A DNA stretch of 64,000 nt from assembly GCA_030704615.1 (NCBI GenBank), contig CM060732.1, forward strand, positions 5,146,001 through 5,210,000. Reading direction: 5' to 3'. A program made the translations under genes and the position numbers. Below, piece after piece: positions 19,034 through 56,911 of the stretch (positions within the stretch are counted from its first letter, which is position 1; each line of letters starts with the position of its first letter). The DNA is from Takakia lepidozioides (Eukaryota > Plantae > Bryophyta). Below the pieces are notes generated by a model, which saw nothing but the letters and a program-made list of their open reading frames with translations, was not told where the DNA came from and did not search any database.

Positions 19034-19074
19034 GGTGAGGTCAATCCCAAGGACGATCGCGTATTGAACTCTAA

Positions 19075-19086
19075 GCTCTGATACCA
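19075..19086 (-). other. Primer-binding site (tRNA-iMet)
   Basis: TGGTATCAGAGC on the minus strand, 1 nt inside the 5' LTR boundary. Confidence 0.92.
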
Positions 19087-19087
19087 A

Positions 19088-24399: not shown

Positions 24400-25075
24400 A
24401 TCTCCAGAACGGAAATGTGGTACCGGCATTTCCGTTCTGACTGAAATCGTGAACCATCGGAACTGAAATGCGGCATCGCATTTCCGTCCGAGTCGCACCT
24501 TTCCGACATTCCAGAACGGAAATGCGGCGCCCCCGCATTTCTTTTGTATATGAGGCATGGAGCTGTGGGACGGAATGGGGCACCAGTATTCCGTCCAGTG
24601 AGACCTTCATACTTTCCCGAACGGAAATGCGCCACGGCATTTCCTGTTCACAACTAAGGTATGTGAAGGTGGAACGGAAATGCGGTACCGCATTTCCGTT
24701 CAGATTGAACACATGAACCACGGGAACTGAAATGCGGTGCCGCATTTCCGTCCGAATCGCACCTTCCGACATTCCAGAACGGAAATGCGGCGCCGCATTC
24801 CCTTTTGTATCTCAGGCATGGAGCTTTTGTATCTCAGAATGGAGCGTGGGAAATGCGGCACCGCATTTCCGTTCAACAACTAAGGTTTGTGAAGGTGGAT
24901 CGGAAATGCGGTGCCGCATTTTCTTCCAACAAGTACGGTATGTGTAGGTTCGGGATGGTACTTAACGGAAATGTGGCGCCGCATTTGCATTTTCACTCCA
25001 ACTCATGAGACGCTGGGACGGAAATGCCATGAAATGTGAACACGTGGAGCAACGGAATTGCGGCATATGTCTGCA
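24400..25075. repeat. Array 1 of GGAAATGCGG-YR-CCGCATTTCC palindromes (~13 copies, ~53-bp period, ~265-bp higher-order unit)
   Basis: Starts at ~24411, 24464, 24518, 24572, 24623, 24676, 24728, 24781, 24849, 24902 and 24967. Confidence 0.93.
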
Positions 25076-25424
25076 CTCTATCTGACTGAAGTGGCACGAG
25101 GCGGCGCGGCGTGACCGTTGGATAATGATGTTTGTTTTTCGGACGGCAGGCGTCCCCTTAACGATTCGAATTTCATAGTGACGCAAAGTCCACGAGGAGA
25201 CACTTTTGTCCAAGCCTTTCGAACCCAAGTGGTGCATCACCGCCGTTTCATCTTCATTTGTCGTGTCTACTCAGTCACCCCTCTCGCGCCCTTTCCATCT
25301 GCACTCTTCGCCCCTTTTCCCTGTTTCTGTTCTTCTTATGCTCGAACCTAAGAGGGAGGGAGTGCAAGCACCAGAGAAGAGACATCGTCGCAAGCTCCGA
25401 AAATTGTACTTCGGACGTAGGCCA

Positions 25425-28400
25425 ATGCCAAAGGGGAGGAAGCAGATGCGTCTACAGGAGGAGATTGCCATCTCGCAGCATCACGCAGGCAACCCAACCA
25501 CCAGTGAGAGCTCCGTGCTATCGGGATTCGCCAGCTGATCGAGCCCCGAAACCCCCCTCATTTTCCTTTTGCAATTCTTAGACTGTATGCTAGGAGACTT
25601 GAATGCATAAGATGTTTGCATGCCTAACCGGAAAGGTGGACGTGCTGGAGGGATCGCAGGAATCCGAAGAGCCGCAGACAGAGTCCGTGGAGCTAGTTGC
25701 AGCACGCACACCCAGCCGATCCACGAGCACGGGTCTTCCTGTCGGGCCTAGCCCTGTGCGTTTTAAGGATGCGGCTTTGAAGGGCAAGTCTTTGCAGTTC
25801 AAAGCCCCAGAGAGCAACTCGCGTTCGAAGGTCATGGAGAATCGCCAGCAGGGGTCTAGCCCTTCTCCAGCAAAGACGAAAAAGAAGCAGCTCGTCCTTC
25901 AACTTGTTTCTGAACCGGACCAGGCCGTTTCCCCCCCACCCAAGCGAATGAAGCATATTCAATTGCAGCAGACACCTTCACCTGCAAGAATGAGAAGCAG
26001 AAGGCAATCAGGGGAAGGGCGGAGCAGTCTCCCGCAAAACCGATCCACGAGCTGAAGCCCAGTTCCTGCTTGATTCCAGCCTGGTGATTGGGGGCGTCTC
26101 TGCTACAGCGAAGGCAATGGGATCGACCGATTTCGTCGATCTGGTACCGGAGGAGGGTGCTGCCGCTCAATGTTCGCAGCAAGACCTGACCACCGTGGAG
26201 GAAGATCTTCAAAATATTGCAGGCCCGGAGGAGGCCTCTGCAATTGCAGAATTGCCTGCAAAGATTCCCCAGAGTGCAGCTCCAGTTGGGGATGCTCCAG
26301 CTGCTCAGCCCCTACCGCCACCAGCAAAAATGTCTCCGGAGGAATTCCAAAGTGCACCAGATACAATGTTGGAGGAGACACACAGTAGCATTGGCAGAGT
26401 TCTGGGCAGCAGGGTGTTCCAGCGGACTCTTCGAATCCCACTCTGTCCCATGGTCTCCCTTCCCATCGTCAGGCAGGCACTTCCCGGAGATGTGGATAAG
26501 CTCAAGTTTGCATTTCGAGAAGGGTACCGTCTAGGTTCGCCAGCCTTCTACGTTTCCCTTGAGAATGAGGACGGCGAATCTCGTGGACCCATTGCGGATG
26601 AATTGTCAACATGGGCTACCCATTGGCACACTCGCAACGACGAATTCGAGGCAATGCTGAAGGGTGATCCAGACTTCGGCCATATGTCGGGTAAAATGTT
26701 CTTTGTGTGGGACGGGAATCACCGACTTCTTGCCTGGTGGGAGTACATCAAGCAGAACCATGCCAAGCACATTGGCTGGCATTACATGGTGGAGTGTGTC
26801 ATCCTCAAGGTGAAGGCGGCAGACTCCTCCCTGCTCAAGAATGCCATGGCGGACCTCAACTCGTAAGATACTCATACCCTCCCAAGCACGTTCGAAATGT
26901 GGTGCCGCATTTCGGTTTCCAATCTGTTTTGTTTCCGTGCTTCCGTGGACTGAACTGGAGAGTGTGCCTTGTAGGGTCACTGAAAATGCGTACGTGCATA
27001 CCCACATAACACATATTTTGTACAGGGTGACGAAAACTGGTCTCACTGATCCGCACATGTTTGCGGAAATGCTGGAGCCCGAGCTCATTCAGAAAGTCGT
27101 GGCAAAAACTGACCGGACATGGTATCATCTCACTATGGATGGAATGGTGGAGGTGATATACGAAGTAAGTCGTCCTCCCATTTCCCTCTACTCATCCTTC
27201 CCCAATTTTCAGTAATCTTTCCACATGAATCGAATGTAACGCTTCTGCATGTTTTTGTTGGCAGTCAAACATCAAGCTGGATTTGGCCCATGCCAAAACG
27301 CTTCTTCATGGAAAATGAGGGGCAGGTCAAAACGTTGCAGTCATTGACTGAGCACTTGAAGGAAGCCGGGGTCAAGTCCAGAACGAAATACAAGTCAAAG
27401 CTTGTGAAGCTAGTGGCCATTGCAGATCCGGCACTTGGAAATGACTTCATCCCCGAGATTGCAAAACACTATTCTCGGGCCATGCAGCCGACCATGCAGT
27501 TGGAGAAACTGCATCACCTCTCAACGGCATGTGTTGAGGTGAAAGAGAAGGTGAGGTTTCAATGCACTGAAGTTCCTTCCTAGCACTAGCCCCTCTTCTT
27601 CCTGCTCCTGACATTGGATCGGAAATGGCAGACACGGTGGCTGTCGATCTGGAATGCATCAGAGAGTATAAGGACAATGTGGTCTTTTCCACTCGAAGTT
27701 TCCGACCCTGCAGTGGATGTGTGGCTCAACCGCATGACTTGGTGGTTCCAGGTAATTCAAGGTACTTCACCATATTTGCCTTTCTGAAATGAATTCCCTG
27801 AACTGCTACGTGACAATGCATGTGGGAATCGCATATAATGACGAATGCGAAGGAGCAAGTCGTAATGCATACAAATTCGTTCGGCTTGTACGTCAAATGG
27901 GATGGAACACAGACATTGGAAGACTACGTGACACGTTTCAGATGTGCGTACCAAGGACAACCTCTTTGCCAGGGAGCTGCAGACAGCAAGAAGGAGCGTG
28001 GAGTTTATACATCAGGAGGGAGCGGGAAAAGCTGCAATGCGAATTGTTTACAGGTGAAGCCTAGTTGTCCTTGTATGCGAAGCCTGGTTATGAGTTTTGT
28101 CTGGGAAATGCGGCACCGCATTCGCATTTTAAGTTTTCGGTTGCACTCTGCGAGTACGTTGGTCTCAACTTTTGCTCACGCATGCTGACTACCCTGCAGG
28201 TATATGAAATACGTGCTTCTTCAGACAGGGGCCCTGGCTCAAGAGCCCCCGTTCTTCATGGCTTGGACCGTGGCGGGCCCAAGCTGTGTCTACACACCAG
28301 AGATGCAGAAACAATGGCATGCCGCGCATCTCGTTGGATGCCCGTGGTACCTGGACATGTCTGGCGGAATTGTTGACGAGTCTGAGAAAGATCTACTTGC

Positions 28401-30550
28401 AAAAGCAGAGGAGAAGAGAAAATAAAGACGTGTCCCTGCTCGGCCAGAGACGGCAAAGGAAGCTGCTGCTCTGGAACAATCCAGAAAGGCAGTTGAGATG
28501 GCACAGAAGACGGTGGATGCAGCTGTGCAGGCTCAACAGAAGGGGTCGAAGAAGCGGACTCGCCAGCAAGGAGCAGCAGTTGTGACACCCAAGAAAACGA
28601 AGAAGCAGAAACAGATAGTGCAGGAAGAGGGTGAGGAAGAGGACTCCGATGGAGACTTTGCAACCAGCCCACCCCCCCGAAACGCAGCCGAAATCCCCTG
28701 TGCCCACCGTTGTCACGAGAGGGACGAGAACTGGCTCGGCAAAGAAGGCACTCTTCAACCCCCCGGGGGGGCACCCTTTCGAGCCGGTGGAAATGAAGAG
28801 GCCAAAAGTGGATCCCGATACAGTAGTCCAGTGTGTAAATGAGAGTTTCTTGGCGGCTTTGGATGGACGGGCAGCCAAGTTGGCATACATGAAGACCATG
28901 GAGGGTCTGAAGGGCAGAGCACTGAAGAAGGCGGCTGCCAAAGAGCCTTCCGACACCCCTGGGTTTCTGAAGATGGTCTCATTCTTTGAGAGGGTGTGTG
29001 CAGACAAGGATTGTAGGAGGGGCGGAAATGCCACCGAGTGGCCTTGCGATATGATCATCTTGGATATTCCGGACGGAGAGCCTGTGGAAGGACTGCAAGC
29101 TTTGCCATCTTGGAACAGGTACTCCGAGGACTTTTGGAAGAAAGGATTCGGGCTCGCCCGCATGGTGTTGGACGGCAGAGGCTATGTGGTTGCCCGGGCG
29201 AGCAGAGGCAAAAACACGCAGACAGGAATTGCGAAGTGGACCCGCAAGAGCGCCGTCCCAATTCTGAAGAAGAAGTGGACGTGCATCAACACATTGGGCC
29301 TTCGGTCGGAAGGGAAGAAGGTAATTACAACATTGGCACTCGTCCTTTCATTTTCTTAGGAGTTTTGAAATGCGGTGCCGCATTTGATTTCTAATCGTTC
29401 CCCACTGTGTATGCAGACGAAGCAGTTCGATGCATACTGCTTTGTGAAGGAGAACTCCACCTTTGCTTTCCGGAAGGAGGGATTGTTGGTTGACCCGAAC
29501 TGTGACCCCATCGATTACGACGTCCTGTTCAACAATGTTCCCACGGAACTTCTCCCTCGTAGCCTCACTTCAACTGAACCCCTCCGGTATTCATTGACTC
29601 AGAGCCCTGCCTTCATTCAGACAATTATGGACACATGCACTGACGTGGAGGGCACAGTGCTCGACCTCATCTGTGGGACAGGTATGCAGAATCTTGTTCT
29701 ATGCTGTTCTGCAAATTCTCGTTATGCTTTAATTCGCAACATCTGAAGGGCCATGTCATAATGTGTGGATGGCATTTTAACAGGTGCCTCAATGTGGGCT
29801 GGGCGGTTTTCCGACCGGCACCTCTTCGCCTACGAGGAGGACACATCCGTTTGGGGAACCCATCTGGAAGGGCTGCAACGGAATGTGAAGGCTCCCATCG
29901 AAGCCAAAGACTCCTCGGATTTGTCGGAGTCGGAGGAAGAGACAGGGACATTGATGCCAAGGAGAACCCGGAATACGAGTGAGTGCAAACATTGTAAGTT
30001 TGCAAAGCCTTCTGGGTGATTTTTTGTCAAACGCATTTCCAGACTGTGCTTCTCATTACTCTCCTTGGTGATTGTTATGTGCAGGATTCCAGGATCCGGG
30101 TCGAAACATGTAGGGCCTACACTTCTTGCCAGGAAGAATGTCCCGTTCTTTGCGAGGGGCGACTTCATGACGAGCCCGGTGAAGGACTACTCCCTTCCTA
30201 GTTATGCAGCGAAACTCGCAAATACAGCGATTAGACGATGTGAGAATCCCAGTAAAGTAGAGCAGATTTTGGAGAGGGCTAGGGAGGACAGAAGGATAAG
30301 GAAAGAGTTGGCAATAGCTGAGACAGGTAGACGGGTGCGAAAGTTCATATGTGATTCAGCGGATGAGAGCGATGCAGACAAGGAGGACGACGAGCCAACG
30401 GAGGTGAGATGGTCGGTTCCGCAAGGTGAAGATGGGATTTTCGAAAGCCTGGCCAACGAGCAGTCCGCTGGAGATGAGAGCAATGATGGGGTGGAGGCGG
30501 AGCAGGACAGTCAAGGACAGGACGACGATAGTGATGATTTTCAAGATTAA
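25425..30550 (+). pseudogene. Gene A: multi-exon ParB/Srx-like domain + beta-class amino-DNA-methyltransferase-like protein (copy 1, most complete)
   Basis: FFVWDGNHRLLAW (26711-26725, ParB/Srx DG.HR motif); CDMIILDIPDG (29063, motif-IV-like); SPAFIQTIMDTCTDVEGTVLDLICGT|GASMWAGRFSDRHLFAYEED (motif X/I/II-like, spliced 29682-29783). GT-AG introns at ~26863, 27165, 27551, 27753, 28054, 29321, 29682 and 29979. TAA at 28423 (GAA in the other copies) and frameshifts. The start codon is uncertain. Confidence 0.7.
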
Positions 30551-30686
30551 TAGAATTTTAATGAACTCTCAGTACATTTAAATTCTATTCCAGAGTATAT
30601 AAAGAAAATTCTCCCCGTCCTTCATGTCCCCTCTCCCATGTGCTTCTCAACAACAACATCGTCCAAACCTGGTCCCTCCCAAAAGC

Positions 30687-31515
30687 GGAAATGCGGCACC
30701 GCATTTCCAAAACCAGGGCAAGAACAATTTTCCGTTTCATGGTTTGGACATCAGAAACTGTTCGGCCGAACGGAAATACGGTGCCGCATTTCCGTTTTCG
30801 ACACGGCAGTTTTGCCGATTGCCAGCTCCTTCCATTGAGGTAAATGGAAATGCGGAGGACGAACATGGAAATGCGGTGCCGCATTTAAATTTTGGAGATG
30901 GACATTTTTCCAACTGCAGACCCATCGACGGAAATGGGGCTCACCATTCCATGATGCTAGACGGGAATGCGGCACCGCATTCCATTGTCCAATAAGAAAT
31001 TTCGATGACGTACATGGAAATGCGGCGCCGCATTTCCAAAACGGACATCGTTGTTTGTCCAATTCGAGACCCTTTGACGGAAATGCGGCACCGCATTCCA
31101 TTGTCCAATACGAAATTTTGATGACGGACATGGAAATGCGGTGCCGCATTTCCAGAACGGACATCGTTGTTTGTCCAATTCCAGACCCTTCGACGGAAAT
31201 GCGGCACCGCATTCCATTGTGCTCTCCGGAAATGCGGTGCCGCATTTCATTGTCCGGTACGAAATTTCGATGACGGACATGGAAATGTGGTGCCGCATTT
31301 CCAGTATGGACATGGACAAGCATTAGCGATTGGACATGCTTGGACAATTCAAGGTCCAATATGGAAATGCGGTGCCGCATTTCCAATTCGAAGTATGGTA
31401 ATGCCATGTCAGGAAATGAAATGTTGTACAACATTTCCATTACAACGACAACGGAGGAAAGGGAGCTGCCAGAAATTGCTGCATGGAGAAAAATAAAATG
31501 CGGTGCCGAATTTCC
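30687..31515. repeat. Array 2 of the 22-bp palindrome (116-bp dimer unit)
   Basis: About 13 copies; core unit ..GGAAATGCGGCGCCGCATTTCCAGAACGGACATCGTTGTTTGTCCAATT..GACGGAAATGCGGCACCGCATTCCATTGTCCAATAAGAAAT.. Confidence 0.93.
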
Positions 31516-31791
31516 GAGCTTCGGCGTGTACATGTTTCGTTTTACTCATATATGGATTTCCTTCACCTCAGGACTCTGATATCGCTGACTCAGGTATATT
31601 CATATGGACAGACACATTGTAGAAATGAGACCACAAATTGTAAACAGTGGGCCAATTACGACAGTTCTTAGGCACGATGAAACACAAGCACACAGAAGTG
31701 AGGTACGATGGGTTGTTTTATTGATCGAACACGGTGTCTCACATTTAGCAACTCCAGACAAATCTAAGCCCTTCCTCCTTCTACATGGGCG

Positions 31792-32448
31792 TCACCAAGT
31801 CGACGGAACTTCGATAGCCCTCAAAACAAGCTCATTACTTATGCGGCACCTCGAGGTAAACTGCAATGCGGTCGATCTGGTGCCCTTGGTGGAGCTGACG
31901 ACAATGTCATGCCCATCAATCATACCACCATCATACATTGACAAGGTCGTTGTGGGCCTAATGTGCCCGTTCGATTCGTCTTTGCAACTCAGCCGAATGT
32001 CTCCATACACTGGAAGAGCGGATCGAACTCCACGAATATAGTTTTCCCCGGTGCCGTCCTCCCTGGTCCACTGGCAGCAGTTCCAGCGCCAAAGTGAGGC
32101 CGTGCGTGATCTGTCCGGCATCCCATTCCACCTTTGTATATCGAGGTCAACAATTTTCAGGACCCACGGACCGCATTGACCCTCGCCCTCACCTCGCTCA
32201 AAGCGGTAATAGCCCTCCAAATACTCCATTGCGCGCAAAGACTCCCGCTTGATTCCAGAAGCGTCTGTGAAAACAGAGAGCCAGACAATGATGTCTCTTG
32301 ATTCTGGTTTGAACATAGCATAATCGTGGCCATGATAAGGGCAGTCAGCAGGATTTTGACGGCACGACATTCTTGAAAAAGAGCAGCGCGGTGGCTGGAA
32401 GAAGTTCAAGCAAACGCTGCAATTCCTCACAAACATTCCAGGGCACAT
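31792..32448 (-). CDS. Gene B, unknown protein (copy 1; internal deletion relative to 37.8 kb, 5' end cut at 32523)
   Basis: 218-aa ORF ...DCPYHGHDYAMF...RWNCCQWT...PVYGDI...YDGGMIDGHDIVV...LQFTSR...ELVLRAIEVP; paralogous to 38378-38995. Confidence 0.65.
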   Translation of the reverse strand: MCPGMFVRNCSVCLNFFQPPRCSFSRMSCRQNPADCPYHGHDYAMFKPESRDIIVWLSVFTDASGIKRESLRAMEYLEGYYRFERGEGEGQCGPWVLKIVDLDIQRWNGMPDRSRTASLWRWNCCQWTREDGTGENYIRGVRSALPVYGDIRLSCKDESNGHIRPTTTLSMYDGGMIDGHDIVVSSTKGTRSTALQFTSRCRISNELVLRAIEVPSTW

Positions 32449-32855
32449 TTAAATTTCCCCCCTACAGGAACCTGCACGGATGAAGATTGGCTGCTCCATG
32501 AATGTAGCCGTTTCAGTTTCCTAAACAGGAGCCAAGAGCCCACATTTGCGGTGCAGGTTGCGCTTCGCCCCTTCCTACATCATTTGCTTTGCAAAGCCTC
32601 CATCCCACGCCTGTGCATATCTTGTGATCATCGCGTTCCATCTCTCATCTCTCGGCTTGATAGTACTTAGAAAACACGCAGGAGAAAGAAAAAAAAAAAA
32701 ACCCAAGTCCCAGCCCTCTAATGGGCAACCCTATAAGCAATTTTTTTTTAAAATTTAACCTTTTGGTTACCAAGCTTGCACTAGAAGTCATTCCGGTGAC
32801 TATTTGGTGGCAAGCTCGCGCTAGTCAACCCTCGTTGACCACCCTTTCCTCTAGT

Positions 32856-33040
32856 GCGGAGTCATACAGTCACGACGACGTCTACCAAAGTAGTCGTAGA
32901 GGACTACGTAGTCACGCAGTCATTTCAACAACTACGTGAAGACCCATTTGGTCCAAAAATACAAAGAAGTCATGGTCAAAGTCAGGAAAACCATGACTAC
33001 CGCGCCTCGGCAGTCAGATATACCGCGATCTGTTGTAGTG
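32856..33040. mobile_element. CACTA right-end fragment truncating gene A copy 2
   Basis: Ends ATCTGTTGTAGTG (same TIR as 1190-1201) with AGTCAT/GTAGTC repeats; followed directly by gene A exon TGGTCTTTTCC (cf. 27680). Confidence 0.75.
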
Positions 33041-35886
33041 TGGTCTTTTCCACTCGAAGTTTCCGACCCTGCAATGGATGTGTGGCTCAACCGCATGACT
33101 TGGTGGTTCCAGGTAATTCAAGGTACTTCCCCCGATTTGCTTTGCTGGAATGAATTCACGTGACAAATGCATGTTGGAAACGCAGGTAATGACGAATGCG
33201 AAGGAGCAAGTCGTAATGCATAGTGATTCGTTCGGCTTGTACGTCAAATGGGATGGAACACAGACATTGGAAGACTATGTGACACGTTTCAGATGTGCGT
33301 ACAAGGACAACCTCTTCGCCAGGGAGCTGCGGACAGCAAGAAGGAGCGTGGAGTTTACACACCAGGAGGGGGCGGGAAAAGCTGCAATGCGAATTGTGTA
33401 CAGGAAGCCCAGCTCCCGTTGTATGCAAAAGCTGGGTTATGAGGTTTGTCTGGGAAATGCGGCACCGCATTCGCACTTTATCGTTTCGATTGCACTCTGC
33501 GAGTACATTCTCATAACTTGTGTTCACGCATGTTGACTGTCTTGCAGGTATATGAAATACGTGCTACTTAAGATAGGGGCCCTGGCGCAAGAGCCCCCGT
33601 TTTTCATGGCTTGGACCGTGCCGGAACCAAGCTGTGTCTATCTACCAGAGATGCAGAAACAATGGCATGCTGCGCATCTCGTTGGATGCCCGTGACCTGG
33701 ACATGTCTGGCGGACTTGTTGACGAATCGGAGAAAGATCTGCACGCAAAAGCGGAGGAGAAGAGAAAGGAAAGACGTGTCCCTGCTGGGCCTGAGTCGGC
33801 AAAGGACGCTGCTGCTCTGGAACAATCCATAAAGGCAGCTGAGATGGCATAGAAGACGGTGGATGCAGCTGTGCAGGCTCAACAGAAGGGGTCGAAGAAG
33901 AGGACTCGCCAGCAAGGAGCAGCAGTTGTGACACCCAAGAAGACGAAGAAGCAGAAATAGAAAGAGCAGGAAGAGGGTGACGAAGAAGACGATGATGGAG
34001 ACTTTGCAACCAGCCCACCCCCAAAACGCAGCTGAAATCCCCTGTGCCCACCGTTGTCACGAGAGGGACGAGAACAAGCTCAGCCAAGAAGGCACTCTTC
34101 AATCCCCTAGGGGGGCACCCTTTCGAGCCGGTGGAAATGAAGAGGCCGAAAGTGGAGCCAAAAACAGTAGTTCAGTGTGTCAATGAGAGTTTCTTGGCGG
34201 CTTTGGACGGACGGGCAGCCAAGTTGGCATACATCAAGACCATGGAGGGTCTGAAGGGCAGAGCACTGAAGAAGGCGGCTGAAGCAGAGCCTTCCGACAC
34301 CCCTGGGTTTCTGAAGATGGTCTCGTTCTTTGAGAGGGTGTGTGCAGACAAGGATTGTAGGAGGGGCGGAAATGCCACCGAGTGGCCTTGCGATATGATC
34401 ATCTTGGATATTCCGGACGGAGAGCCTGTGGAAGGACTGCAAGCTTTGCCATCTTGGAACAGGTACTCCGAGGACTTTTGGAAGAAAGGATTCGGGCTCG
34501 CCCGCATGGTGTTGGACGACAGAGGCTATGTGGTTGCCCGGGCGAGCAGAGGCAAAAACACGCAGACAGGAATTGCGAAGTGGACCCACAAGAGCGCCGT
34601 CCCAATTCTGAAGAAGAAGTGGACGTGCATCAACACATTGGGCCTTCGGACGGAAGGGAAGAAGGTAATTACAACATGGCACTCGTCCTTTCATTTTCTT
34701 AGGAGTTTTGAAATGCGGTGCCGCATTCGATTTCTAATCGTTCCCCACTGTGTATGCAGACAAAGCAGTTTGATGCATACTGCTTTGTGAAGGAGAACTC
34801 CACCTTTGCTTTCCGGAAGGAGGGATTGTTGGTTGACCCGAACTGCGACCCCATCGATTACGACGTCCTATTCAACAATGTTCCCACGGAACTCCTCCCC
34901 CATAGTCTCACTTCAACGGATCCCCTGCGGTATTCATGGACTCGGAGCCTTGCCTTCATCCAGACAATTATGGAGGCATGCACTGACCTGGAGGGCAGAG
35001 TGCTGGACCTCATCTGTGGAACAGGTATGCAGATTCTTGTACTATGTTGTTCTGTGAATTCTCATTCTGTTCAAATTCGCCATGTGTGAACGGCCATTTT
35101 TCAATGAGTGGATAGCATTGTAACAGGTGCCTCAATGTGGGCTGGGCGATTTTCCAACCGGCACCTCTTTGCCTACGAGGAGGACACATCCGTCTGGGGA
35201 TCCCATTTGGAAGGGCTTCAACAAAATGTGAAGGCTCCCATCGAAGCCAAAGATTCCTCGGATTCGTCGGAGTCGGAGGAAGAATGCCGAGGAGAACCCG
35301 GAATACGAGTGAGTGCAAACATTGTAAGTTTGCAAAGCCTTCTGGGTGATTTTTTGTCAAACGCATTTCCGGACTGTGGTTCTCATTGGTCTCGTGGGTG
35401 ATTGTTATGTGCAGGATTCCAGGATCCGGGTCGGAACATGTAGGGCCTACACTTCTTGCCAGGACGAATGTCCCGTTCTTTGCGAGGGCCGACTTCATGA
35501 AGAGCCCGGTGAAGGACTACTCTCTTCCTAGTTATGCAGCTAAACTCGCAAATACAACGATTACACGATGTGAGAATCCCAGTAAAGTAGAGCAGATTTT
35601 GAAGAGGGCTAGGGAGGACAGAAGGATAAGGAAAGAGTTGGCAGCAGCTGAGACAGGTAGACGGGTGCGAAAGTTCATATGTGATTCAGCGGAAGAGAGC
35701 GATGCAGACAGGGCGGACGACAACCCAACGGAGGTGAGATGGTCGGTTCCGCAAGGGGAAGATGGGATTTTCAAAAGCCTGGCCAACGAGCAGTCCGCTG
35801 GACATGAGAAAGGCAATGACGGGGTGGAAGGGGCGCAGGACATCAAGGACAGGACGACGATAGTGATGATTTTCAAAGATTGGTAG
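33041..35886 (+). pseudogene. Gene A copy 2 (3' half, methyltransferase-like domain only)
   Basis: Clearly homologous to 27680-30550 but diverged; DIPDG and VLDLICGTG retained; has its own stops (TAG ~33849). Confidence 0.8.
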
Positions 35887-36019
35887 AATTTTAATTAACT
35901 CTCTGTACATTTAAATTCTCTTCCAGAGCATATAAAGGAAATTCTCACCGTCCTTCATGTCCCCTCTCCCATGTGCTTCTCAACGACACCATCGTCCAAA
36001 CCACGTCCCTCCCAAAATC

Positions 36020-36969
36020 GGAAATGCGGCACCGCATTTCCATGTCGGAACGGAAATGTGGGAACTGCAAGAACCTCGTTTGGAAATGCGACACCGCATT
36101 TCCAAAACCGGGGCAAGAACAATTTTCCGCTTCCTGGTTTGGACATCAGAAACTGTTCGGCCGAACGGAAATGTCGTGCCGCATTTCCGTTTTCGACACG
36201 GCAGTTTTAGGGAAATGGAAATGCCACCCCGCATGCGGAGGTCGAACACGTTATTTACATGGCAGACATGGAAATGCGGTGCTGCATTTCCATTTTGGAG
36301 ATGGATGTTTATCCAACTCCAGACCGATCGACGGAAATGCGGCTCCGCATTCCATTGTCCAATAAGAAATTTCGATGACGTACATGGAAATGCGGCACCG
36401 CATTTCCAGAACGGACATCGTTGTTTGTCCAATTCCAGACCCTTGGACGGAAATGCGGCACTGCATTCCATTGTCCAATAAGAAATTTTGATGACGTACA
36501 TGGAAATGCGGCGCCGCATTTCCAGAACGGACATCGTTGTTTGTCCAACTCCAGACCCTTGGACGGAAATGCGGCACCGCATTCCATTGTCCAATTCGAA
36601 ATTTTGATTACAGACATGGAAATATTGTGCCGCATTTCCAGAACAGACTTCGTTGATTGTCCAATTCCAGACCCTTCGACGGAAATGCGGCACCGCATTC
36701 CATTGTCCAATAAGAAAACTTGATGACGGACATGGAAGTGCGGTGCCGCATTTCCAGAACGGACATGGACATGCATTGGCGATTGGACATGCTTGGACAA
36801 TTCAAGGTCCAATATGAAAATGTGGTGCCGCATTTCCAATTCGAAGTATGGTAATGCCATGTCAAGAAATGAAATGCGGTACAACATTTCCGTTACGACC
36901 ACAACGGAGGAAAGGGAGCTGCCAGAAATCGCAGCATGGAGAAAAATGAAATGCGGTGCCGCATTTCCG
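36020..36969. repeat. Array 3 of the 22-bp palindrome (~16 copies)
   Basis: Starts at 36270, 36333, 36386, 36449, 36502, 36565, 36618, 36681 and 36734: alternating 63/53-bp spacing. Confidence 0.95.
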
Positions 36970-37244
36970 AGCTTGAGCATGTACATGTTTCCTTTTACTC
37001 ATACATGGATTTCCTTCACCTCAGGACCCTGATATCGTTGACTCTGGTATATTCATGTGGAAAGACACATTGTAGAAATGAGACCACAAATTGTAGACAG
37101 TGGGCCAATTACAGCAGTTCCTGAACACAATAAAACACAGCACACAGAAGTGAGGTACGATGGGTTGTTTTATTGATCAAACACGTTGTCTCACATTTAG
37201 CAACTCTTGACAAATCTAAGCCCTTCCGCCTTCTACATGGGCGT

Positions 37245-37998
37245 CACCAAGTCGACGGAACTTCGATAGCCCTCAAAACAAGCTCTTTACTGAACGGGCA
37301 CCTCTAGGTAAACTGCAATGCGGTCGTTCTGTTGCCCTTGGTGGAGCTGACGACAATGTCATGCCCATCAATGATACCACCATCATACATTGACAAGGTC
37401 GTTGTGGGCCTAATGTGCCCGTGCGATTCGTCTTCGCAACTCAGCCGAATGTCTCCATACACTGGAAGAGCGGATCGAACTCCACGAATATAGTTTTCCC
37501 CGGTGCCGTCCTCCCTGGTCCACCGGCAGCAGTTCCAACGCCAAAGTGAGGCCGTGCGTGATTTGTCCAGCATCCCATTCCAGCTTGGTATATCGAGGTC
37601 AACAATTTTCAGGACCCGCGGACCGCATTAACCCTCGCCCTCACCTCGCTCAAAGCGGTAATAGCCCTCCAAATACTCCATTGCGCGCAAAGACTCCCGC
37701 TTGATTTCAGAAGCGTCTGTGAAAACAGAGAGCCATACAATGATGTCTCCTGATTCTGGTTTGAACATAGCATAATCGTGGCCATGATAAGGGCAGTCAG
37801 CAGGATTGCGGCGGCACGACATCCTTGCAAAAGATTAGCGGAGTACGCTCAATGACAACAGCTCCCGGATGGAGGAGGCAGCAGTGCGGTGGCTGAAAGA
37901 AGTTGAAGCAAACGCTGCAATTCCTCACTAACACTCCAGGGCACATTTAAATTCCCCCCCTACAGGAACCTGCACGGATGAAGATTGGCTGCTCCATG
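37245..37998 (-). pseudogene. Gene B copy 2
   Basis: Homologous to 31792-32448, with in-frame stops at ~37628 and ~37304. Confidence 0.7.
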
Positions 37999-38039
37999 AA
38001 TGTAGCCGTTTCAGTTTCCTTCCCTGCCATGCAAACTAT

Positions 38040-38995
38040 GGGCGGTAAGTGCCAGGTGGGCCTATAGCCACTCGAGACGATGAAGTCCATCCCCCTTCGA
38101 TGTAAATGCGGCGCCGAATTTCCATCCGGGGGATGGACTTCGGTGGCAGATTTCAAACTATACCCCGTGGATGAGAAAGAGGTATCGGGTCATCCACCGC
38201 TGGCGTGATGAACACGTTACACGATGGTTGGTGGGTACGTGGGACCCAGATGCTCCATTATTGGAGCCCGCACTGCTCTTCCGCTTCTAATCATTTCAAA
38301 AATCTAAGGGCTTCGTTGCTGTCCGCAAGGTCATTGTCATCGGCATCAAAGACGTCCTCAGGTCCTCCTTTGCAAGGATGTCATGCTTCTGGAACCGGGA
38401 TGACTGCCCTTATGGAGGCTTTGATTATGCAATGTATTCGGCCACATCGGGAGACATCGTTATCTGGTACACAGATTACACAGAAGATACTCGTTCGAAT
38501 GTGGAAACATTGTCCGCTTTTGAGTATATCCCAGGCCACTACGCCTTCGAGCGGGGTGACGATCTTGGTCTGAGGAGTCCGTGGCTCCTGCGCATCCTTG
38601 ATTCCAATTTTCCCAGCTATGACCGGCATCCATGCAGAAGAATGCGCACTGCTATGCTGTTGCGGTGGAACTGCTGCCAGTGGACGTGGGTGGACTCCAT
38701 CGGAGAGACGTATACTCCTGAAGGAGTGCGCTCCTCTTCTCCATTGTATGGGGACATTCTCATTGGTGTGGACGACGAAAACGTGAAGCTTTCCATATTC
38801 GATGGTGGTATGATTGAAGGGCACGACATTGTGGTGAACATCAACAGGGGCGGTACAACGGCTGCAATCCAGTTTACCTCGAGGAGCCCGATGACTCATG
38901 AGCTAGTTCTCAGAGTAGTCGAAGTCCCATTGACAACGTGGCTTGTATTCAGAAGGCACAGGGCTAAAGATTTGTTTGCACAATCAGCACAGTAG
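38040..38995 (+). CDS. Gene B', unknown protein paralogous to gene B
   Basis: 205-aa ORF (38378-38995) MSCFWNRDDCPYGGFDYAMY...RWNCCQWT...PLYGDI...FDGGMIEGHDIVV...IQFTSR..ELVLRVVEVP. Coding-like sequence extends upstream through a stop. Confidence 0.65.
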
Positions 38996-39344: not shown

Positions 39345-39406
39345 TACGACTCTGCTCATGGCTCATGCCGCTCATGGCTCATGGCTCATGAAATAGCAGC
39401 CCCCCT
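39345..39406. repeat. Element terminus type 1: (GGCTCAT)n GAAATAGCAGCCCCCCT
   Basis: Identity with the copy at 56850-56911 stops exactly after CCCCCCT. Confidence 0.75.
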
Positions 39407-39446
39407 TGAGAGAGCCTAGATCCCAAACGAGGGTGGACTTTGTAGA

Positions 39447-42400
39447 GTGACTGAATCTTACCTTTGGTCCAAATTGAAGCTCAAACCGGGCACAGTTTAT
39501 TTGGAAGAAGAAAGGAAGGATGTTCCTGGACAGATTGACCAGACCATTGTTGTGCTAGGTAATGACGGAGGTTGCGGAATCGAAAGGCACGTACCCCCAT
39601 CAGACACCATCCTGTACCGAGCTGTGGGAATGCCCATTACCTTTCCGAATCAGTCGCTACCCACACCATCCACAAAGGAGTCAGGAAACCGACAGGCGGC
39701 CACTGCCAACAGAGAGGTATGCAACAATAATCATTCCCCACCTAAACCGTCAAGACCCTCCATAGCTTCTCGTGTGGAGGTATTCGACATTTCCGAGAAG
39801 GAAGATGAGTGCATTGAGGTCCCCATGTCCTCCACACGGTCGTTCAAATCCGACATGGACGTCTCTGCAGGTGCTATGCATGTACCCTGGAGCATAACTC
39901 CAACCCGGTCCATTGTGCAGCTCCTACGGCAACATTACCTCGATGGTTCTCGCTCCGAGCTGACTGCTCTCGACTATGCCAAATTTCCAGTCAGGAAGGT
40001 AACGTATCTGCCTCTTGAAGTTGATGGCAATGTCATCTTTGAGTTTCCACCTGTTACTTCCTCAAACAAAGCCTCAGGGATTGAAAGCATGACGGACACC
40101 CCTGGTGTGTGACGAAGACCAGTAGCACGAAAATTGTTGATGGTGTTCGTGTACGATATGTCCTCTGTGCGGGGAAGCTGAGGTGCCTCAATCCCGCCTG
40201 CTTCCACTTTCTCTCCAAAGGAGGGCGGAGAAACGAGACGGATTGGACTGGCACAACCCATCATCCATTCATTGTCTCCAGCCAAGCTCCTGCGGGTACT
40301 TTCAAGTGCGCACATTGCAAAGAACCACCGACGTGCATGTCCATGTGCAGAGCCAAGCAATATTACATAATCCATTTGCTCCCGGACTTGACTAGAGCTT
40401 GCATACACGTTGGGGTCCACTGCCACCCCTTGGCGAGAAGCAACATGCGGGAGGCTGTGCAGGAAGCACACGCCATCATAAAAGAGGAGGTGAAATTGAG
40501 CCCCAGAGCCAGACCAAAGCAGATTCAGCTGAAGGCAGCCCACAAGATTGCTCTTGGCAAAGTCATGTCTGAAGATGGTTCAGACCGAGTGCCCTTGAAA
40601 AAGAGGAGATGCTTGACCTGTTGGAGTCCGTCTCGCACGTTTGTAGTCCGAATATGCGGAATCACATCGTATCTTGCAAGCATGAGTTCGGCCGGGGGTC
40701 GGACATGCACTCAATTCTGGAGGTGAAACAAAGGACTGGATATGACTACATCCAAGGTAGCAGGTTTCCAGGGCAAGGCAGCGAATCCGATAGTTTTTAC
40801 ATTTTTAAAATGTCGACGTGTGGGCCTAGGAGTGGGGTCGACTTGGTCACTCGCATGACAACTGAAAACTTGTCGAATTGGGTGATGTTTGACCACATCA
40901 AGCGAATTACAAACCATCAGTGGGTGACTATGGGTGCGCATGTCTATGACTATCGCTCCAAGAGGCTCATGACGATTGCAATCTGCGAGATGAAAGGGGA
41001 GGACACACAGTCGGAACGTCGGCTTTGTGCGAGCAATTCTCCACTGTGACGCAGACACAGTTGTCTCCACAATGGCTTGGCCATACTGCATAACAACGGG
41101 CGGAATCTGGGGCAAGCGAGCGGTGGGATTTTCTCGCACGGAATCCCCGCTTGAAGGCGATGGCGATCTGGAAACTCTTGGGCTTCCACTGCTGGAAGAC
41201 ACATTGTGCAGCAACATGACGGGACCTCGAGGTGCTGTCCGAATGTTCCTGTCGGATCTCTAGGATTCCTCTTTGCACCCGGGTTCCTCTTCAATCCTCC
41301 GCCTCACAGGGCGAGTACAAATGTCCCCCTCTAGGTGCTCACCTCTGCGGTGCAAAGGCGTCCCTTTGATCTTCTCTCGCAATGTTGTCACCCATTTCAG
41401 TGGATTCTTCGACCTCGAAGCTGTTCGTACCAACAATTCCTCCCTGTCCGGCCCAAAGCCCCATTGTTTCCCGCTCATGAACTTGTAGTACGTGGCTTGC
41501 TGCATGATTGCTCTGTCGATGTCCTCCGTTGTGGCCGTCACTACGTCCACCAGATGTGCGGCAGAAGACGCTCGCCAGGAGGAGTGGACTGATTCTGCCA
41601 TATTTGTGTTCGGCATGTCCATGTCGGAATCCAAGCACCGCTCCTACAAGGACAGAAACAATGGTGAGGGACCAATGGAAAAGTCCGTAATAGAACGACA
41701 ATTGCATGAAAAGGACAACATCATACCTCCCGCATGTACTGTCCGAACTGTCGATACCGGAAATGCCACCACCCCAACCAGCTGTGCAAGGCTCCCAGAT
41801 TGGTTGTCTCCACCGCACCTGACGTGTTCCACCAAGCCTCGATGATAGCAAACTTAACCTCCGCATCATCAAATGTGGGTGCATCCTTCCACGCCGTACA
41901 AAGGACATGGTGTTCAGCCTGGAATGAGCTAGCAACAAATTTGGTAGTGTAGTGAGATAGACTCTGCATCCAATGGAATCCACAGGATCTCTCTTTCCCC
42001 TCCATTGGAACATTGGGGTCCTCACCATACACACACCGCACCGCTGCCCAGTTGGCCTGAGTGTTGTCTGCCATGAATCCCCTGAAATTGGGCTCTGGCA
42101 AACCCACCCTTGCCATCTGCTCGTTTATGCCCTCCCACAGATGCATAAACGAGCATCCGCTTCCACAGCCTCCACCACCGACCCATGTGAGAGCAAGAAC
42201 AATGGGACGCGACAACTCTAAGCATCCTACACACCGTTGGGGGAAACCGAAGAGGCGGCGACCTCCCTCAAAAATGAACGAGACAAGGATGGGGAATGCA
42301 CTTTGGATGAACTGTACAATCCAGAGCTCGACAGAAGTGCCCCCACCAGGCTTCGGGCGTGTGTATCAGATGCCCACGGCAGGCTCAGCTGTTCGCAATG

Positions 42401-42621
42401 AGGTGTACACCATCACCATTTCAGAATTACCTACCTGCAATTGCACCGACTTCCAGATCATGGCGAACAAGGGGGCATCATACTGCCCTTGCAAGCATCT
42501 GTACTACGTGTACCTAAAAAGACTCCGGTGTAATTCCACAACTCATCACTTCATACATGCACCAGGGTTGAGCCCCCAAGAGGTGTGCACTCTTCTGAAT
42601 ATGGATCCAGGGGACCAGTGA
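39447..42621 (+). pseudogene. Gene C: Mutator-like transposase (WRKY/GCM1-like Zn domain, DDE core, SWIM) with an internally inverted segment ~41012-42146
   Basis: + strand: DGHPWC..CAGKLRCLNPAC..CAHC..IHVGVHCHP; VMFDH..TMGAHVYD..CEMKGED. - strand: LWEGINEQM..GFMADN.QANW..SCGFHW; NMAESVH. + strand: YTITISELPTCNCTDF..CKHLYYV (SWIM). Confidence 0.8.
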
Positions 42622-43409
42622 GCTTGGCTTGCGGTCCCCACACAATGGTACGCCCATCCTTTTCGGAGTTTCAGTTATAGTAGAACTGTACTGCTGCAAG
42701 TACCTCTGACTCTGGCCACAGAAAGGTCCGACTTATGTCTTGTCTACCAGTAACCTGTTTTGCTCAAACTAAGATAAGATAATAGTATGTCATTCATTAT
42801 TGTTTCCACGTGCTTGTATTTTTGTTTGTCGGAGGGTTCCTGTTTTTCTGCTCTCCCAAACATTGTTTTCCTCATTCGACCCCCGGCAAGGAAATGCGGC
42901 GCCGCATTTCCAAGTAACGTCGTAGGTACTGGTAGATGCGGCCTTCGTCATAGCAAGATAGTCGCACCCAGCCTTCAGGGAGCCGACCGTTGCCAACACC
43001 AAACTCCCCAGAAATTTCGCATGTGCGAGCCCTAATGCGGCACCGCATTTCCCAGTTGAGTCGCAAATCTTTCCCGCCGAATACCCGAAAATGACAGAAT
43101 TGTGAAGTACTGCAGACTCTATTGGTTCAATCGCGGCAGAAGGGTCAGCTTCATTCCAATGTTAAGGCATGTAAAACTGCGGAATACTCTATAAAGGCCA
43201 GTATGCGACGTCCTTTTGCCGTGGTATACTGGATTTCTCGTTGCACGGTCACTCATTTCCATGAGCGGATCTTAAAAACCATGAGCGGAGTTGTTACTGA
43301 TGACATATCTTCGCCGCATTACAGGATCTGGAACTTCCAAAAACGGCAAGGTCAAATTAAAAAACTATTATTTTAATACTTTTTTAATCTGCCCCATTTC
43401 CAAATTTGG

Positions 43410-43522
43410 AGGAGTCCGCTCATGAAATCCACGTGTCTTAGACTTCGGCTCACCGCTCATGCGGCTCATGCGGCTCATGGCTCATGGCTCATGGTTTCTG
43501 CTCATGAAATAGTAAACCTCCT
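43410..43522. repeat. Element terminus type 2: (GGCTCAT)n..CTCATGAAATAGTAAACCTCCT
   Basis: Shares CTCATGAAATAG + 10 nt ending CCT with terminus 1; PPR coding sequence starts immediately after. Confidence 0.75.
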
Positions 43523-48010: not shown

Positions 48011-48016
48011 GAGTCA

Positions 48017-50025: not shown

Positions 50026-53000
50026 AACAGGAGCCAAGAGCCCACATTTGCGGTGCAGGTTGCGCTTCGCCCCTTCCTACATCATTTGCTTTGCAAAGCC
50101 TCCATCCCACGCCTGTGCATATCTTGTGATCATCGCGTTCCATCTCTCATCTCTCGGCTTGATAGTACTTAGAAAACGCGCAGGAGAAAGAAAAAAAAAA
50201 AAAACCCAAGTCCCAGCCCTCTAATGGGCAACCCTATAAGCAATTTTTTTTTAAAATTTAACCTTTTGGTTACCAAGCTTGCACTAGAAGTCATTCCGGT
50301 GACTATTTGGTGGCAAGCTCGCGCTAGTCAACCCTCGTTGACCACCCTTTCCTCTAGTGCGGAGTCATACAGTCACGACGACGTCTACCAAAGTAGTCGT
50401 AGAGGACTACGTAGTCACGCAGTCATTTCAACAACTACGTGAAGACCCATTTGGTCCAAAAATACAAAGAAGTCATGGTCAAAGTCAGGAAAACCATGAC
50501 TACCGCGCCTCGGCAGTCAGATATACCGCGATCTGTTGTAGTGTGGTCTTTTCCACTCGAAGTTTCCGACCCTGCAATGGATGTGTGGCTCAACCGCATG
50601 ACTTGGTGGTTCCAGGTAATTCAAGGTACTTCCCCCGATTTGCTTTGCTGGAATGAATTCACGTGACAAATGCATGTTGGAAACGCAGGTAATGACGAAT
50701 GCGAAGGAGCAAGTCGTAATGCATAGTGATTCGTTCGGCTTGTACGTCAAATGGGATGGAACACAGACATTGGAAGACTATGTGACACGTTTCAGATGTG
50801 CGTACAAGGACAACCTCTTCGCCAGGGAGCTGCGGACAGCAAGAAGGAGCGTGGAGTTTACACACCAGGAGGGGGCGGGAAAAGCTGCAATGCGAATTGT
50901 GTACAGGAAGCCCAGCTCCCGTTGTATGCAAAAGCTGGGTTATGAGGTTTGTCTGGGAAATGCGGCACCGCATTCGCACTTTATCGTTTCGATTGCACTC
51001 TGCGAGTACATTCTCATAACTTGTGTTCACGCATGTTGACTGTCTTGCAGGTATATGAAATACGTGCTACTTAAGATAGGGGCCCTGGCGCAAGAGCCCC
51101 CGTTTTTCATGGCTTGGACCGTGCCGGAACCAAGCTGTGTCTACCTACCAGAGATGCAGAAACAATGGCATGCTGCGCATCTCGTTGGATGCCCGTGACC
51201 TGGACATGTCTGGCGGACTTGTTGACGAATCGGAGAAAGATCTGCACGCAAAAGCGGAGGAGAAGAGAAAGGAAAGACGTGTCCCTGCTGGGCCTGAGTC
51301 GGCAAAGGACGCTGCTGCTCTGGAACAATCCATAAAGGCAGCTGAGATGGCATAGAAGACGGTGGATGCAGCTGTGCAGGCTCAACAGAAGGGGTCGAAG
51401 AAGAGGACTCGCCAGCAAGGAGCAGCAGTTGTGACACCCAAGAAGACGAAGAAGCAGAAATAGAAAGAGCAGGAAGAGGGTGACGAAGAAGACGATGATG
51501 GAGACTTTGCAACCAGCCCACCCCCAAAACGCAGCTGAAATCCCCTGTGCCCACCGTTGTCACGAGAGGGACGAGAACAAGCTCAGCCAAGAAGGCACTC
51601 TTCAATCCCCTAGGGGGGCACCCTTTCGAGCCGGTGGAAATGAAGAGGCCGAAAGTGGAGCCAAAAACAGTAGTTCAGTGTGTCAATGAGAGTTTCTTGG
51701 CGGCTTTGGACGGACGGGCAGCCAAGTTGGCATACATCAAGACCATGGAGGGTCTGAAGGGCAGAGCACTGAAGAAGGCGGCTGAAGCAGAGCCTTCCGA
51801 CACCCCTGGGTTTCTGAAGATGGTCTCGTTCTTTGAGAGGGTGTGTGCAGACAAGGATTGTAGGAGGGGCGGAAATGCCACCGAGTGGCCTTGCGATATG
51901 ATCATCTTGGATATTCCGGACGGAGAGCCTGTGGAAGGACTGCAAGCTTTGCCATCTTGGAACAGGTACTCCGAGGACTTTTGGAAGAAAGGATTCGGGC
52001 TCGCCCGCATGGTGTTGGACGACAGAGGCTATGTGGTTGCCCGGGCGAGCAGAGGCAAAAACACGCAGACAGGAATTGCGAAGTGGACCCGCAAGACCGC
52101 CGTCCCAATTCTGAAGAAGAAGTGGACGTGCATCAACACATTGGGCCTTCGGACGGAAGGGAAGAAGGTAATTACAACATTGGCACTCGTCCTTTCATTT
52201 TCTTAGGAGTTTTGAAATGCGGTGCCGCATTCGATTTCTAATCGTTCCCCACTGTGTATGCAGACAAAGCAGTTTGATGCATACTGCTTTGTGAAGGAGA
52301 ACTCCACCTTTGCTTTCCGGAAGGAGGGATTGTTGGTTGACCCGAACTGCGACCCCATCGATTACGACGTCCTATTCAACAATGTTCCCACGGAACTCCT
52401 CCCCCATAGTCTCACTTCAACGGATCCCCTGCGGTATTCATGGACTCGGAGCCTTGCCTTCATCCAGACAATTATGGAGGCATGCACTGACCTGGAGGGC
52501 AGAGTGCTGGACCTCATCTGTGGAACAGGTATGCAGATTCTTGTACTATGTTGTTCTGTGAATTCTCATTCTGTTCAAATTCGCCATGTGTGAACGGCCA
52601 TTTTTCAATGAGTGGATAGCATTGTAACAGGTGCCTCAATGTGGGTTGGGCGATTTTCCAACCGGCACCTCTTTGCCTACGAGGAGGACACATCCGTCTG
52701 GGGATCCCATTTGGAAGGGCTTCAACAAAATGTGAAGGCTCCCATCGAAGCCAAAGATTCCTCGGATTCGTCGGAGTCGGAGGAAGAATGCCGAGGAGAA
52801 CCCGGAATACGAGTGAGTGCAAACATTGTAAGTTTGCAAAGCCTTCTGGGTGATTTTTTGTCAAACGCATTTCCGGACTGTGGTTCTCATTGGTCTCGTG
52901 GGTGATTGTTATGTGCAGGATTCCAGGATCCGGGTCGGAACATGTAGGGCCTACACTTCTTGCCAGGACGAATGTCCCGTTCTTTGCGAGGGCCGACTTC

Positions 53001-56000: not shown

Positions 56001-56911
56001 CGAATGTGGAAACATTGTCCGCTTTTGAGTATATCCCAGGCCACTACGCCTTCGAGCGGGGTGACGATCTTGGTCTGAGGAGTCCGTGGCTCCTGCGCAT
56101 CCTTGATTCCAATTTTCCCAGCTATGACCGGCATCCATGCAGAAGAATGCGCACTGCTATGCTGTTGCGGTGGAACTGCTGCCAGTGGACGTGGGTGGAC
56201 TCCATCGGAGAGACGTATACTCCTGAAGGAGTGCGCTCCTCTTCTCCATTGTATGGGGACATTCTCATTGGTGTGGACGACGAAAACGTGAAGCTTTCCA
56301 TATTCGATGGTGGTATGATTGAAGGGCACGACATTGTGGTGAACATCAACAGGGCGGTACAACGGCTGCAATCCAGTTTACCTCGAGGAGCCCGATGACT
56401 CATGAGCTAGTTCTCAGAGTAGTCGAAGTCCCATTGACAACGTGGCTTGTATTCAGAAGGCACAGGGCTAAAGATTTGTTTGCACAATCAGCACAGTAGA
56501 CGTGCTTCAAATGCAATTCATGTGGATCAATAAAAACCCCATTGTGCCCTCTTTTTGTTCTATTCTGCATCCATCGTTCCCAGAATGCATCATTCCTCAT
56601 TTCGTTTGGGATTGGGAGTGTGGGTGGATTTTGCAAGTGGCTGGTAGGCTGAAATGGGCCCCCATTGTACAGAGCAGTACCACCCTACCATTCGTGAAAC
56701 ATTGCCTTTCAATATGTAATTCTAAAAAACATTGCCGAACCTCCTTCATCGGGAGGTCCTTCTCCCCCTATGACCGTGATACCCTGAACCCTATTCCCGC
56801 GGACACTCATTTCCGGAAAATAGTCCTGCTCATGTTTTTTTTCGACACTTACGACTCTGCTCATGGCTCATGCCACTCATGGCTCATGGCTCATGAAATA
56901 GCAGCCCCCCT
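50026..56911 (+). repeat. Second copy of the 6.9-kb segment (CACTA end, gene A 3' half 50544-53390, array 53524-54472, gene B 54749-55502, gene B' 55553-56499, terminus 1)
   Basis: Near-identical to 32524-39406. Confidence 0.96.

Follow-up and report, generated by a model that had tools for sequence, protein, structure and literature searches.

The DNA considered here is a 64,000-nucleotide stretch of Takakia lepidozioides (Bryophyta), corresponding to positions 5,146,001 to 5,210,000 of contig CM060732.1 (assembly GCA_030704615.1), and is referred to below as the window. It contains a copy of a DNA transposon that, besides a Mutator-like transposase gene, carries a cargo gene whose predicted product combines a ParB/sulfiredoxin (Srx)-fold domain with a methyltransferase-like domain. 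Non-coding DNA around and within this cargo gene holds 22-bp palindromes of the form GGAAATGCGG-NN-CCGCATTTCC. At up to three mismatches the window has 59 matches, against 0.01 expected from 100 shuffles, and 39 of the 59 fall inside 24400-36969; the palindrome reported in a preliminary description of this DNA is therefore a real feature.

Organisation of the element

The cargo gene is spliced and lies on the forward strand (25600..30550, the 5' end being approximate). Its reading frame is broken in the window, and at 27295 it differs in frame from public contigs. The palindromes linked to it, which like all the others are given without strand, are confined to non-coding DNA and lie before the gene, after it and within three of its introns. 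Upstream, array 1 (24411..25041) consists of about 12 sites, eight of them with three mismatches or fewer. Each of the three introns, all bounded by GT..AG, has a single palindrome: at 26893..26914 in the intron 26863-26974, on either side of which the homologue P0005 aligns, and at 28104..28125 and 29366..29387 in the predicted introns 28054-28199 and 29321-29416. Array 2 (30687..31515), downstream of the gene, is composed of a 116-bp unit (63 + 53 bp) and of intervals of 85, 95, 33, 82, 54 and 77 bp. A single palindrome is located between open reading frames (ORFs) 2 and 3 (38102..38123), and two others, 141 bp apart, between the 3' end of the transposase gene and the element end (42890..43052, starting at 42890 and 43031). 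The intron sites and those at 38102, 42890 and 43031 had been overlooked in the preliminary description.

The remaining arrays are copies. The segment 27678-32522 is duplicated in the forward orientation at 33039..38020 with 89-92% identity, including intron sites at 33453 and 34709 and array 3 (36020-36968). Similarly, 32524-39406 recurs in the forward orientation at 50026..56911 with 99.8% identity, and array 4 (53524-54472) within this copy adds no independent information. Arrays 2, 3 and 4, being one duplicated array, were rejected as independent evidence, and arrays 2 and 3, formerly treated as separate, have to be counted once. The 63/53-bp alternation at 36270-36734 represents one 116-bp tandem unit.

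ORF2 (31792..32448, reverse strand) and ORF3 (38291..38995, forward strand) are oppositely oriented paralogues of about 220 amino acids each (64% nucleotide identity). Neither was seen in the 80 related loci described below, and both lack a Pfam family; no homologue of either was found, a word-based protein search with ORF3 giving no match. The transposase gene (39420..42621, forward strand) encodes a Cys/His N-terminal region, the residues D, D, CxxH and E, and a SWIM-like finger. Its FD, AD, CGFH and E motifs are conserved in an alignment with relatives. The SWIM match (E 0.019) is under the Pfam cut-off and the Pfam scan of ORFs gave no match to the MULE family; the gene is called Mutator-like on its motifs.

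One likely end of the element (39354..39406, forward) is formed by GCTCATG heptamer repeats, at which the 99.8% copy and the contigs of other copies also terminate. The likely other end (43455..43520, reverse) has similar repeats and is a candidate partner of the first in a short, imperfect terminal inverted repeat (TIR). The two ends have about 50-60 bp of heptamer repeats in common, at a locus that is rearranged; no TIRs were found in six long related loci. Mutator-like elements are described as producing 8-11 bp target site duplications (PMC6446971), and the match to such a duplication at 43520 and 56911, where the ends adjoin pentatricopeptide repeat (PPR)-like fragments, is merely degenerate as judged by eye. 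A heptamer-repeat end like those of the element is also present at 9180-9210, within 9150-9450, followed by two degenerate CA-centred palindromes 65 bp apart. Public contigs indicate a high-copy family (44101 contigs from run X1).

Centre, arms and spacing of the palindromes

The centre of 46 non-redundant sites reads TG in 18, CA in 16, CG in six, TA in four and CT in two, CA and TG being the same site in its two orientations. Thus, 44 of the 46 centres are pyrimidine-purine (YR). Between duplicated copies none of 32 centre positions differs, compared with 24/320 in the arms and 41/496 in the spacers. Outside the sites, 33 of the 84 CpG changes between these copies are not of the deamination type. 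A free centre would thus be expected to leave the YR class by drift. Contrary to the initial proposal of a free centre, the centre is restricted to a class of dinucleotides: YR is also found in 27 of 30 sites of related elements. The possibility that the centre is a free product of CpG decay was rejected, since YR is held across families and no change separates the duplicates. CpG decay is not supported as the main explanation, the centre not being hypermutable here, although CG to CA/TG is still the simplest path within the 116-bp unit, where it may explain the variation among perfect sites. The centre at 24738-24739 varies among contigs.

With respect to the arms, 77 of 92 half-sites still have their CpGs (GCGG/CCGC), compared with a CG centre in six of the 46 non-redundant sites, in agreement with the persistence initially described. 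The comparison of arm and spacer CpG decay suggested at that time gave transitions in 5/26 and 9/27 cases, respectively, on the dead duplicate (p 0.35), which are indistinguishable. In AT-rich relatives the arm CpGs are heavily decayed. Recent copies thus decay neutrally. In the longer term arms have been retained while spacers have diverged past alignment.

Sites of array 1 are separated by 52-54 bp, with additional intervals of 68 and 65 bp, which bears out the spacing of about 53 bp first noted. The alternation of exactly 63 and 53 bp at 36270-36734 is likewise confirmed. Within the 68-bp interval of array 1 is a 22-bp duplication that has very low contig depth and seems to be missing from most other copies; therefore, it is likely damage in the copy of the window. 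Array 1 comprises four to five unrelated spacer types, and altogether six mutually unalignable types keep the length of 52-54 bp. The spacers of array 1 and those of arrays 2 and 3 had been considered unrelated, and between-class scores of at most 23 (99th percentile of the null, 23) corroborate this.

Phasing was evaluated with the period fixed at 10.5 bp and with spacings entered by hand. Using 18 spacer classes, p was 0.0008 under a uniform null and 0.0004 under a jitter null; counting the array 1 53-mers once (13 classes), the values were 0.030 and 0.018. A raw p below 0.0001 was discarded as pseudo-replicated. For four further families, the modes of the spacing (54, 64, 51 and 138 bp), picked after inspection and omitting three sets without a clear mode, gave p 0.03. 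A nucleosomal period of 10.0-10.2 bp was rejected (mean cosine -0.28 to 0.01), the best period being 10.6-10.8 bp. A preferred spacing of five turns is real, and strict helical phasing is plausible, not proven. The phasing originally put forward is strong when repeated units are included and drops to p 0.02-0.06 after de-duplication; off-phase spacings of 68, 77, 82 and 141 bp occur, and the signal is weak in relatives.

A CRISPR-like reading of the arrays was rejected, as spacers recur in tandem and single sites lie within introns. The exact palindrome had no match in the metagenome contigs searched.

The cargo gene and its relatives

The ParB/Srx-fold exon (26393..26862, forward strand) encodes the motif GNHRLLA (GxxRxxA), kept in 64 of the 88 relatives whose motif region was found among 150 hits. 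This exon has 455 relatives at E <= 0.001 (50% protein clusters), those with names coming from a liverwort and a fern; together with the PPR-like fragments, they suggest a non-seed land plant as the source. Its structural model (85 sequences; pLDDT, predicted local distance difference test, 92) matches KorB (Z 7.7, root-mean-square deviation (rmsd) 2.8, 92 residues aligned), PadC (Z 7.7), archaeal ParB-N and sulfiredoxin, the best rows having Z scores of 5.5-7.7. Srx, Noc and ParB also rank top in Foldseek, none of them at E <= 0.001. The exon has no match to Pfam ParB_N, a PDB sequence search gave no match, and a word-based search among longer proteins found nothing. The model of a full-length homologue, P0188 (mean pLDDT 60.6), shows a helical region after the ParB-like domain, and its residues 94-454 align loosely with the ParB-N structure 5k5d (Z 7.8, rmsd 5.2, 209 aligned).

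The last part of the protein resembles beta-class N4/N6-methyltransferases. In the window, the motif IV region (29018..29209, forward strand) precedes a motif I-like sequence, VLDLICGTG (about 29657-29683, forward strand). This permuted order within a Rossmann fold, motif IV ahead of motif I, is that of beta-class enzymes and is found in the model of P0188, whose predicted methyltransferase fold has a Foldseek E of 3e-6 and a Z of 14.9 to M1.HpyAVI. The motif IV exon of the window matches the family with 96% probability, the motif I exon at E 0.06 only. The ORF-piece scan assigned no Pfam family to the products of the cargo gene, ORF2 or ORF3; the methyltransferase-like part of the cargo matches PF01555 at E 5e-5. 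Both folds, ParB/Srx and beta-class methyltransferase, are predictions.

Motif IV reads DIPD in the window, where active enzymes have (D/N/S)PP(Y/F/W), and D(L/M/I/F/V)P(T/S/I/F) in homologues; the canonical form occurs in none of the 20 homologues, out of 35, in which the motif was found. Because motif IV is non-canonical throughout the family, the domain is likely a non-catalytic module for DNA binding or shielding. Alternatively, the cargo protein could bind the palindromes and write an N4-cytosine or N6-adenine mark by means of an unusual catalytic motif. The fold and the PF01555 match fit such an activity, motif IV retains its first Asp and a single Pro, and this role has been proposed for an algal ParB-methyltransferase cargo (PMC12477816). 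With DIPD here, and with active N4-methylcytosine enzymes of Marchantia reading TSPPY, we consider an active enzyme quite improbable.

Relatives of the locus were collected as 80 loci, kept out of 103 found, and de-duplicated to 41 clusters. They were searched for CGG-NN-CCG cores (up to two transitions) flanked by complementary outer arms, a centre-blind pattern that was fixed after some of the loci had already been inspected. Across the 41 clusters, 30 such palindromes occur in 188 kb near the cargo gene and three in 186 kb farther away, with 1.6 expected from shuffles; 22 of their 27 YR centres are CA or TG. At least one core site is present in 16 clusters. The outer arms are family-specific. 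For instance, locus L012 has seven sites at 64-65 bp and L039 nine at 50-51 bp. Among the 14 clusters having at least 8.5 kb upstream, eight have the ParB gene and the same transposase in head-to-head orientation. In the related loci, Pfam detected no other transposase family in the 56 ORF pieces scanned out of 75 listed. Thus, divergent relatives link site, cargo gene and transposase. The head-to-head arrangement also indicates that array 1 likely corresponds to the region between two divergent genes, the copy of the window being rearranged. A search for the cargo domain with a single peptide pattern (DGNHR) gave no match to a relative among prokaryote genomes and viral contigs, which is weak evidence of absence.

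Alternatively, the transposase, or the product of ORF2 or ORF3, could bind the sites, the ParB-like gene being a mere neighbour. Two sites lie on the transposase side, next to the element end, and the transposase has the Cys/His N-terminal region mentioned above. For a Mutator transposase, binding to cognate motifs and demethylation of the family have been reported without any other protein (10.64898/2026.08.24.746577), although in the same report the AtMu1 peaks are located at TIRs. Here, most sites are near the cargo gene and in its introns, whereas the ends carry a different heptamer repeat. Loci L021, L043 and L067 have sites beside the ParB gene and no transposase match within 8.7-10 kb upstream. 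In addition, a red alga pairs inverted-repeat arrays and a ParB gene with another transposase superfamily (10.1101/2025.02.11.637652). Binding by the transposase or by these ORF products thus appears improbable.

A second palindrome-bearing element is present in the window at 10683-12242. It is AT-rich and mirror-symmetric, has heptamer repeats at its centre, and contains 23 palindromes of two types with the same CGG-YR-CCG core, TAAAGTCGG-YR-CCGACTTTA and TAAGTCGG-YR-CCGACTTA. These occur in pairs with a constant interval of 54 bp. Most likely, this element belongs to a sister family and is its non-autonomous partner.

Many broken repeats, PPR-like by their motif, occur in both orientations at 43520-49000 and 56916-60830. 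A retrotransposon that is Gypsy-like by its motifs occupies 12827-19767, its long terminal repeats being 93% alike. At 3307-6800 and 20191-21978 an ORF resembling NIF phosphatases (PF03031, E 4e-9), with transposase-like neighbours, is likely the cargo of another DNA transposon. The element itself is broken and interrupted by an assembly gap. Its 6.9-kb block (32524-39406/50026-56911) terminates at the likely element end, and 41012-42146 is inverted, compared with public contigs, in the copy of the window only. The duplication, this inversion and the split PPR-like flanks suggest a recent rearrangement or an assembly duplicate.

A possible docking function and its parallels in known systems

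On balance, we favour the reading that the palindromes are docking sites for a dimer of the ParB-like cargo protein of this high-copy Mutator-like transposon. The cargo protein probably binds the palindromes. A dimer would sit on each palindrome with one subunit per arm, and the YR centre would likely serve as a hinge that can bend. The repeat of 52-54 bp would likely place neighbouring dimers on one helical face, spacings of 5-6 turns aiding side-by-side assembly. That the protein loads at the arrays under nucleotide control and spreads from them, like ParB proteins, is a more tentative suggestion, made by analogy. The bound, possibly spreading protein would keep DNA open at the promoter region, in introns and between genes. 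Whether the element thereby stays free of methylation and is transcribed, in the way that VANC acts on VANDAL elements, is close to an even question, also judged by analogy; in such a case the element would recognise, and likely protect, its own copies. The initial proposal of selected, parS-like sites for a dimeric protein, as opposed to a neutral satellite, is well supported by the predicted ParB/Srx gene amid the sites and by CGG-YR-CCG beside the same gene in relatives.

Several observations weigh against a docking function of the cargo protein. No core site was found in 25 of the 41 clusters and only three clusters have three or more. Locus L005 (1754-5836) has different palindromes, 17 sites that are mostly TA-centred and about 138 bp apart, and L027 (9223-9617) has AA/TT-centred palindromes that break the YR rule (a possible likeness of the latter to chromosomal parS is not used as evidence). 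The two sites between the transposase and the element end mean that the transposase could be the binder. As for the protein, the ParB fold scores of the models are middling (no Foldseek E <= 0.001, Z below 8) and no helix-turn-helix was demonstrated in it. Phasing over 12 distinct values reaches p 0.057 under the uniform null (0.039 under jitter), 48 spacings of other families give a mean cosine of 0.21 (p 0.04) with none of seven sets significant alone, and in the second palindrome family of the window one interval is fixed at 54 bp while the other is free at 51-74 bp. In the dead duplicates, the arms have changed about as much as the spacers (7.5% and 8.3%, respectively; p 0.79). Two observations are instead in favour, with reservations. 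In contigs of genomic copies spanning three adjacent sites, 2/60 arm positions and 14/61 spacer positions are variable (p 0.002), a result that covers 40 of 46 rows and may be inflated by cross-mapping between units. Array spacers have a CpG observed/expected ratio of 0.79-1.09, compared with 0.43-0.65 in flanks, 0.66 in element exons and 0.56 in element introns; this richness hints weakly that methylation of the arrays has long been low, but the tandem units make it pseudo-replicated, and against the element's own exons p is only 0.05.

The equal decay of arms and spacers on the dead duplicate and the borderline de-duplicated phasing would also be expected if the palindromes were neutral tandem repeats. 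Template switching occurs at quasi-palindromes, and single sites of the element fold as stable hairpins (-9.3 and -10.7 kcal/mol). Hairpin-driven switching could keep the arms complementary and flip the centre from CA to TG, lengths close to whole turns arising by chance. This explanation does not account for the single sites found in three introns, nor for the inner core and YR centre shared with relatives whose proteins are only 28-49% identical. It also fails to explain why sites are enriched 10-fold next to the ParB gene and why six unrelated spacers are equally long, and we regard it as very unlikely.

If the cargo protein does dock on the palindromes, its task could be other than anti-silencing: a ParB-like clamp might serve transposition or inheritance by tethering excised copies or by pairing ends and targets. 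The ParB fold and the sopC-like grammar of the arrays are compatible with this role. However, no ParA-like or other ATPase family was found among the 26 ORF pieces scanned from this broken element, which an assembly gap interrupts, and the placement in introns and on the promoter side, together with the CpG-rich spacers, fits a chromatin role. A tethering function is thus very unlikely. A broader version of the docking reading is that a clade of transposons from non-seed land plants adopted a whole ParB-parS module of plasmid or phage type, with a nucleotide-gated sliding clamp, phased family-specific arrays and a disarmed methyltransferase shielding the element from host methylation. This appears rather unlikely as a whole. 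If true, it would represent a eukaryotic ParB clamp, an anti-silencing system unrelated to VANC, and a small, retargetable code between proteins and palindromes. In this family the sites are defined, the centre follows a rule, one spacing is preferred and proteins are naturally paired with sites in many forms (the 455 clusters), and binding, spreading and demethylation could be directly tested in a tractable liverwort or moss.

ParB cargo genes of algae, one of them beside inverted-repeat arrays, have already been proposed for transposons; the present analysis contributes the grammar of the sites. In Ectocarpus, Sola1-1_Ec32 carries a gene for ParB and an N4/N6 methyltransferase opposite the transposase, with a hypothesised role (PMC12477816). 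In the red alga Bostrychia, Plavaka elements have inverted-repeat arrays beside the ParB gene PAG3, whose connection is presented as a hypothesis; PAG3 is described as carrying an oxygenase and not a methyltransferase (10.1101/2025.02.11.637652). Compared with these algal cases, the present one involves a Mutator-like element of a land plant, whose cargo has a non-canonical motif IV. Introns also contain sites here, and the sites follow a defined grammar consisting of a CGG-YR-CCG core, family-specific arms and a 52-54 bp spacing. ParB-linked methyltransferases of algae and fungi were described by Iyer et al., whose available text does not include the present family (PMC4738411). No report of ParB cargo in land-plant transposons was found in the literature, where coverage of subscription journals was limited.

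The domain order is shared with phage ParB_N + N6_N4_Mtase fusions, which are the nearest named clusters to the homologue P0153 by language-model features (score 0.82-0.83, a lead only). Unlike these fusions, the genes of plants are interrupted by introns, and their products include a long helical insert and a motif IV that is altered. The site arrangement resembles the SopB-sopC system of the F plasmid in its array of inverted repeats, its non-palindromic two-base centre of one purine/pyrimidine class, its near-whole-turn spacing and the adjacent ParB-family gene. F sopC is described as having 16-bp inverted repeats with a purine-pyrimidine centre in all 205 sites, needed for full binding, and a spacing of 43 bp (about four turns), or 44-45 bp in relatives (PMC3177203). 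The Takakia sites differ from it in their pyrimidine-purine centre, their length of 20-22 bp and their unrelated spacers. Moreover, no ParA was seen here, and since the element is a chromosomal transposon of a eukaryote, partition is not its expected job. The F-plasmid centromere serves as a model for the proposed steps of dimer binding, hinge and side-by-side assembly.

With respect to the outcome, the closest system is VANDAL/VANC of Arabidopsis. The VANC motifs are 8-9 bp long and the available text does not describe them as palindromic (PMC5735166); no ORF here matches a VANC-type Pfam family, the cargo having predicted ParB and methyltransferase folds instead. Demethylation is demonstrated in that system and inferred here, and the mechanism by which anti-silencing spreads over kilobases from short motifs was left open (PMC5735166). 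In both cases, a Mutator-like element carries a cargo protein together with family-specific short tandem motifs in non-coding DNA, those of VANDAL being located in introns and in intergenic and terminal non-coding regions (PMC5735166).

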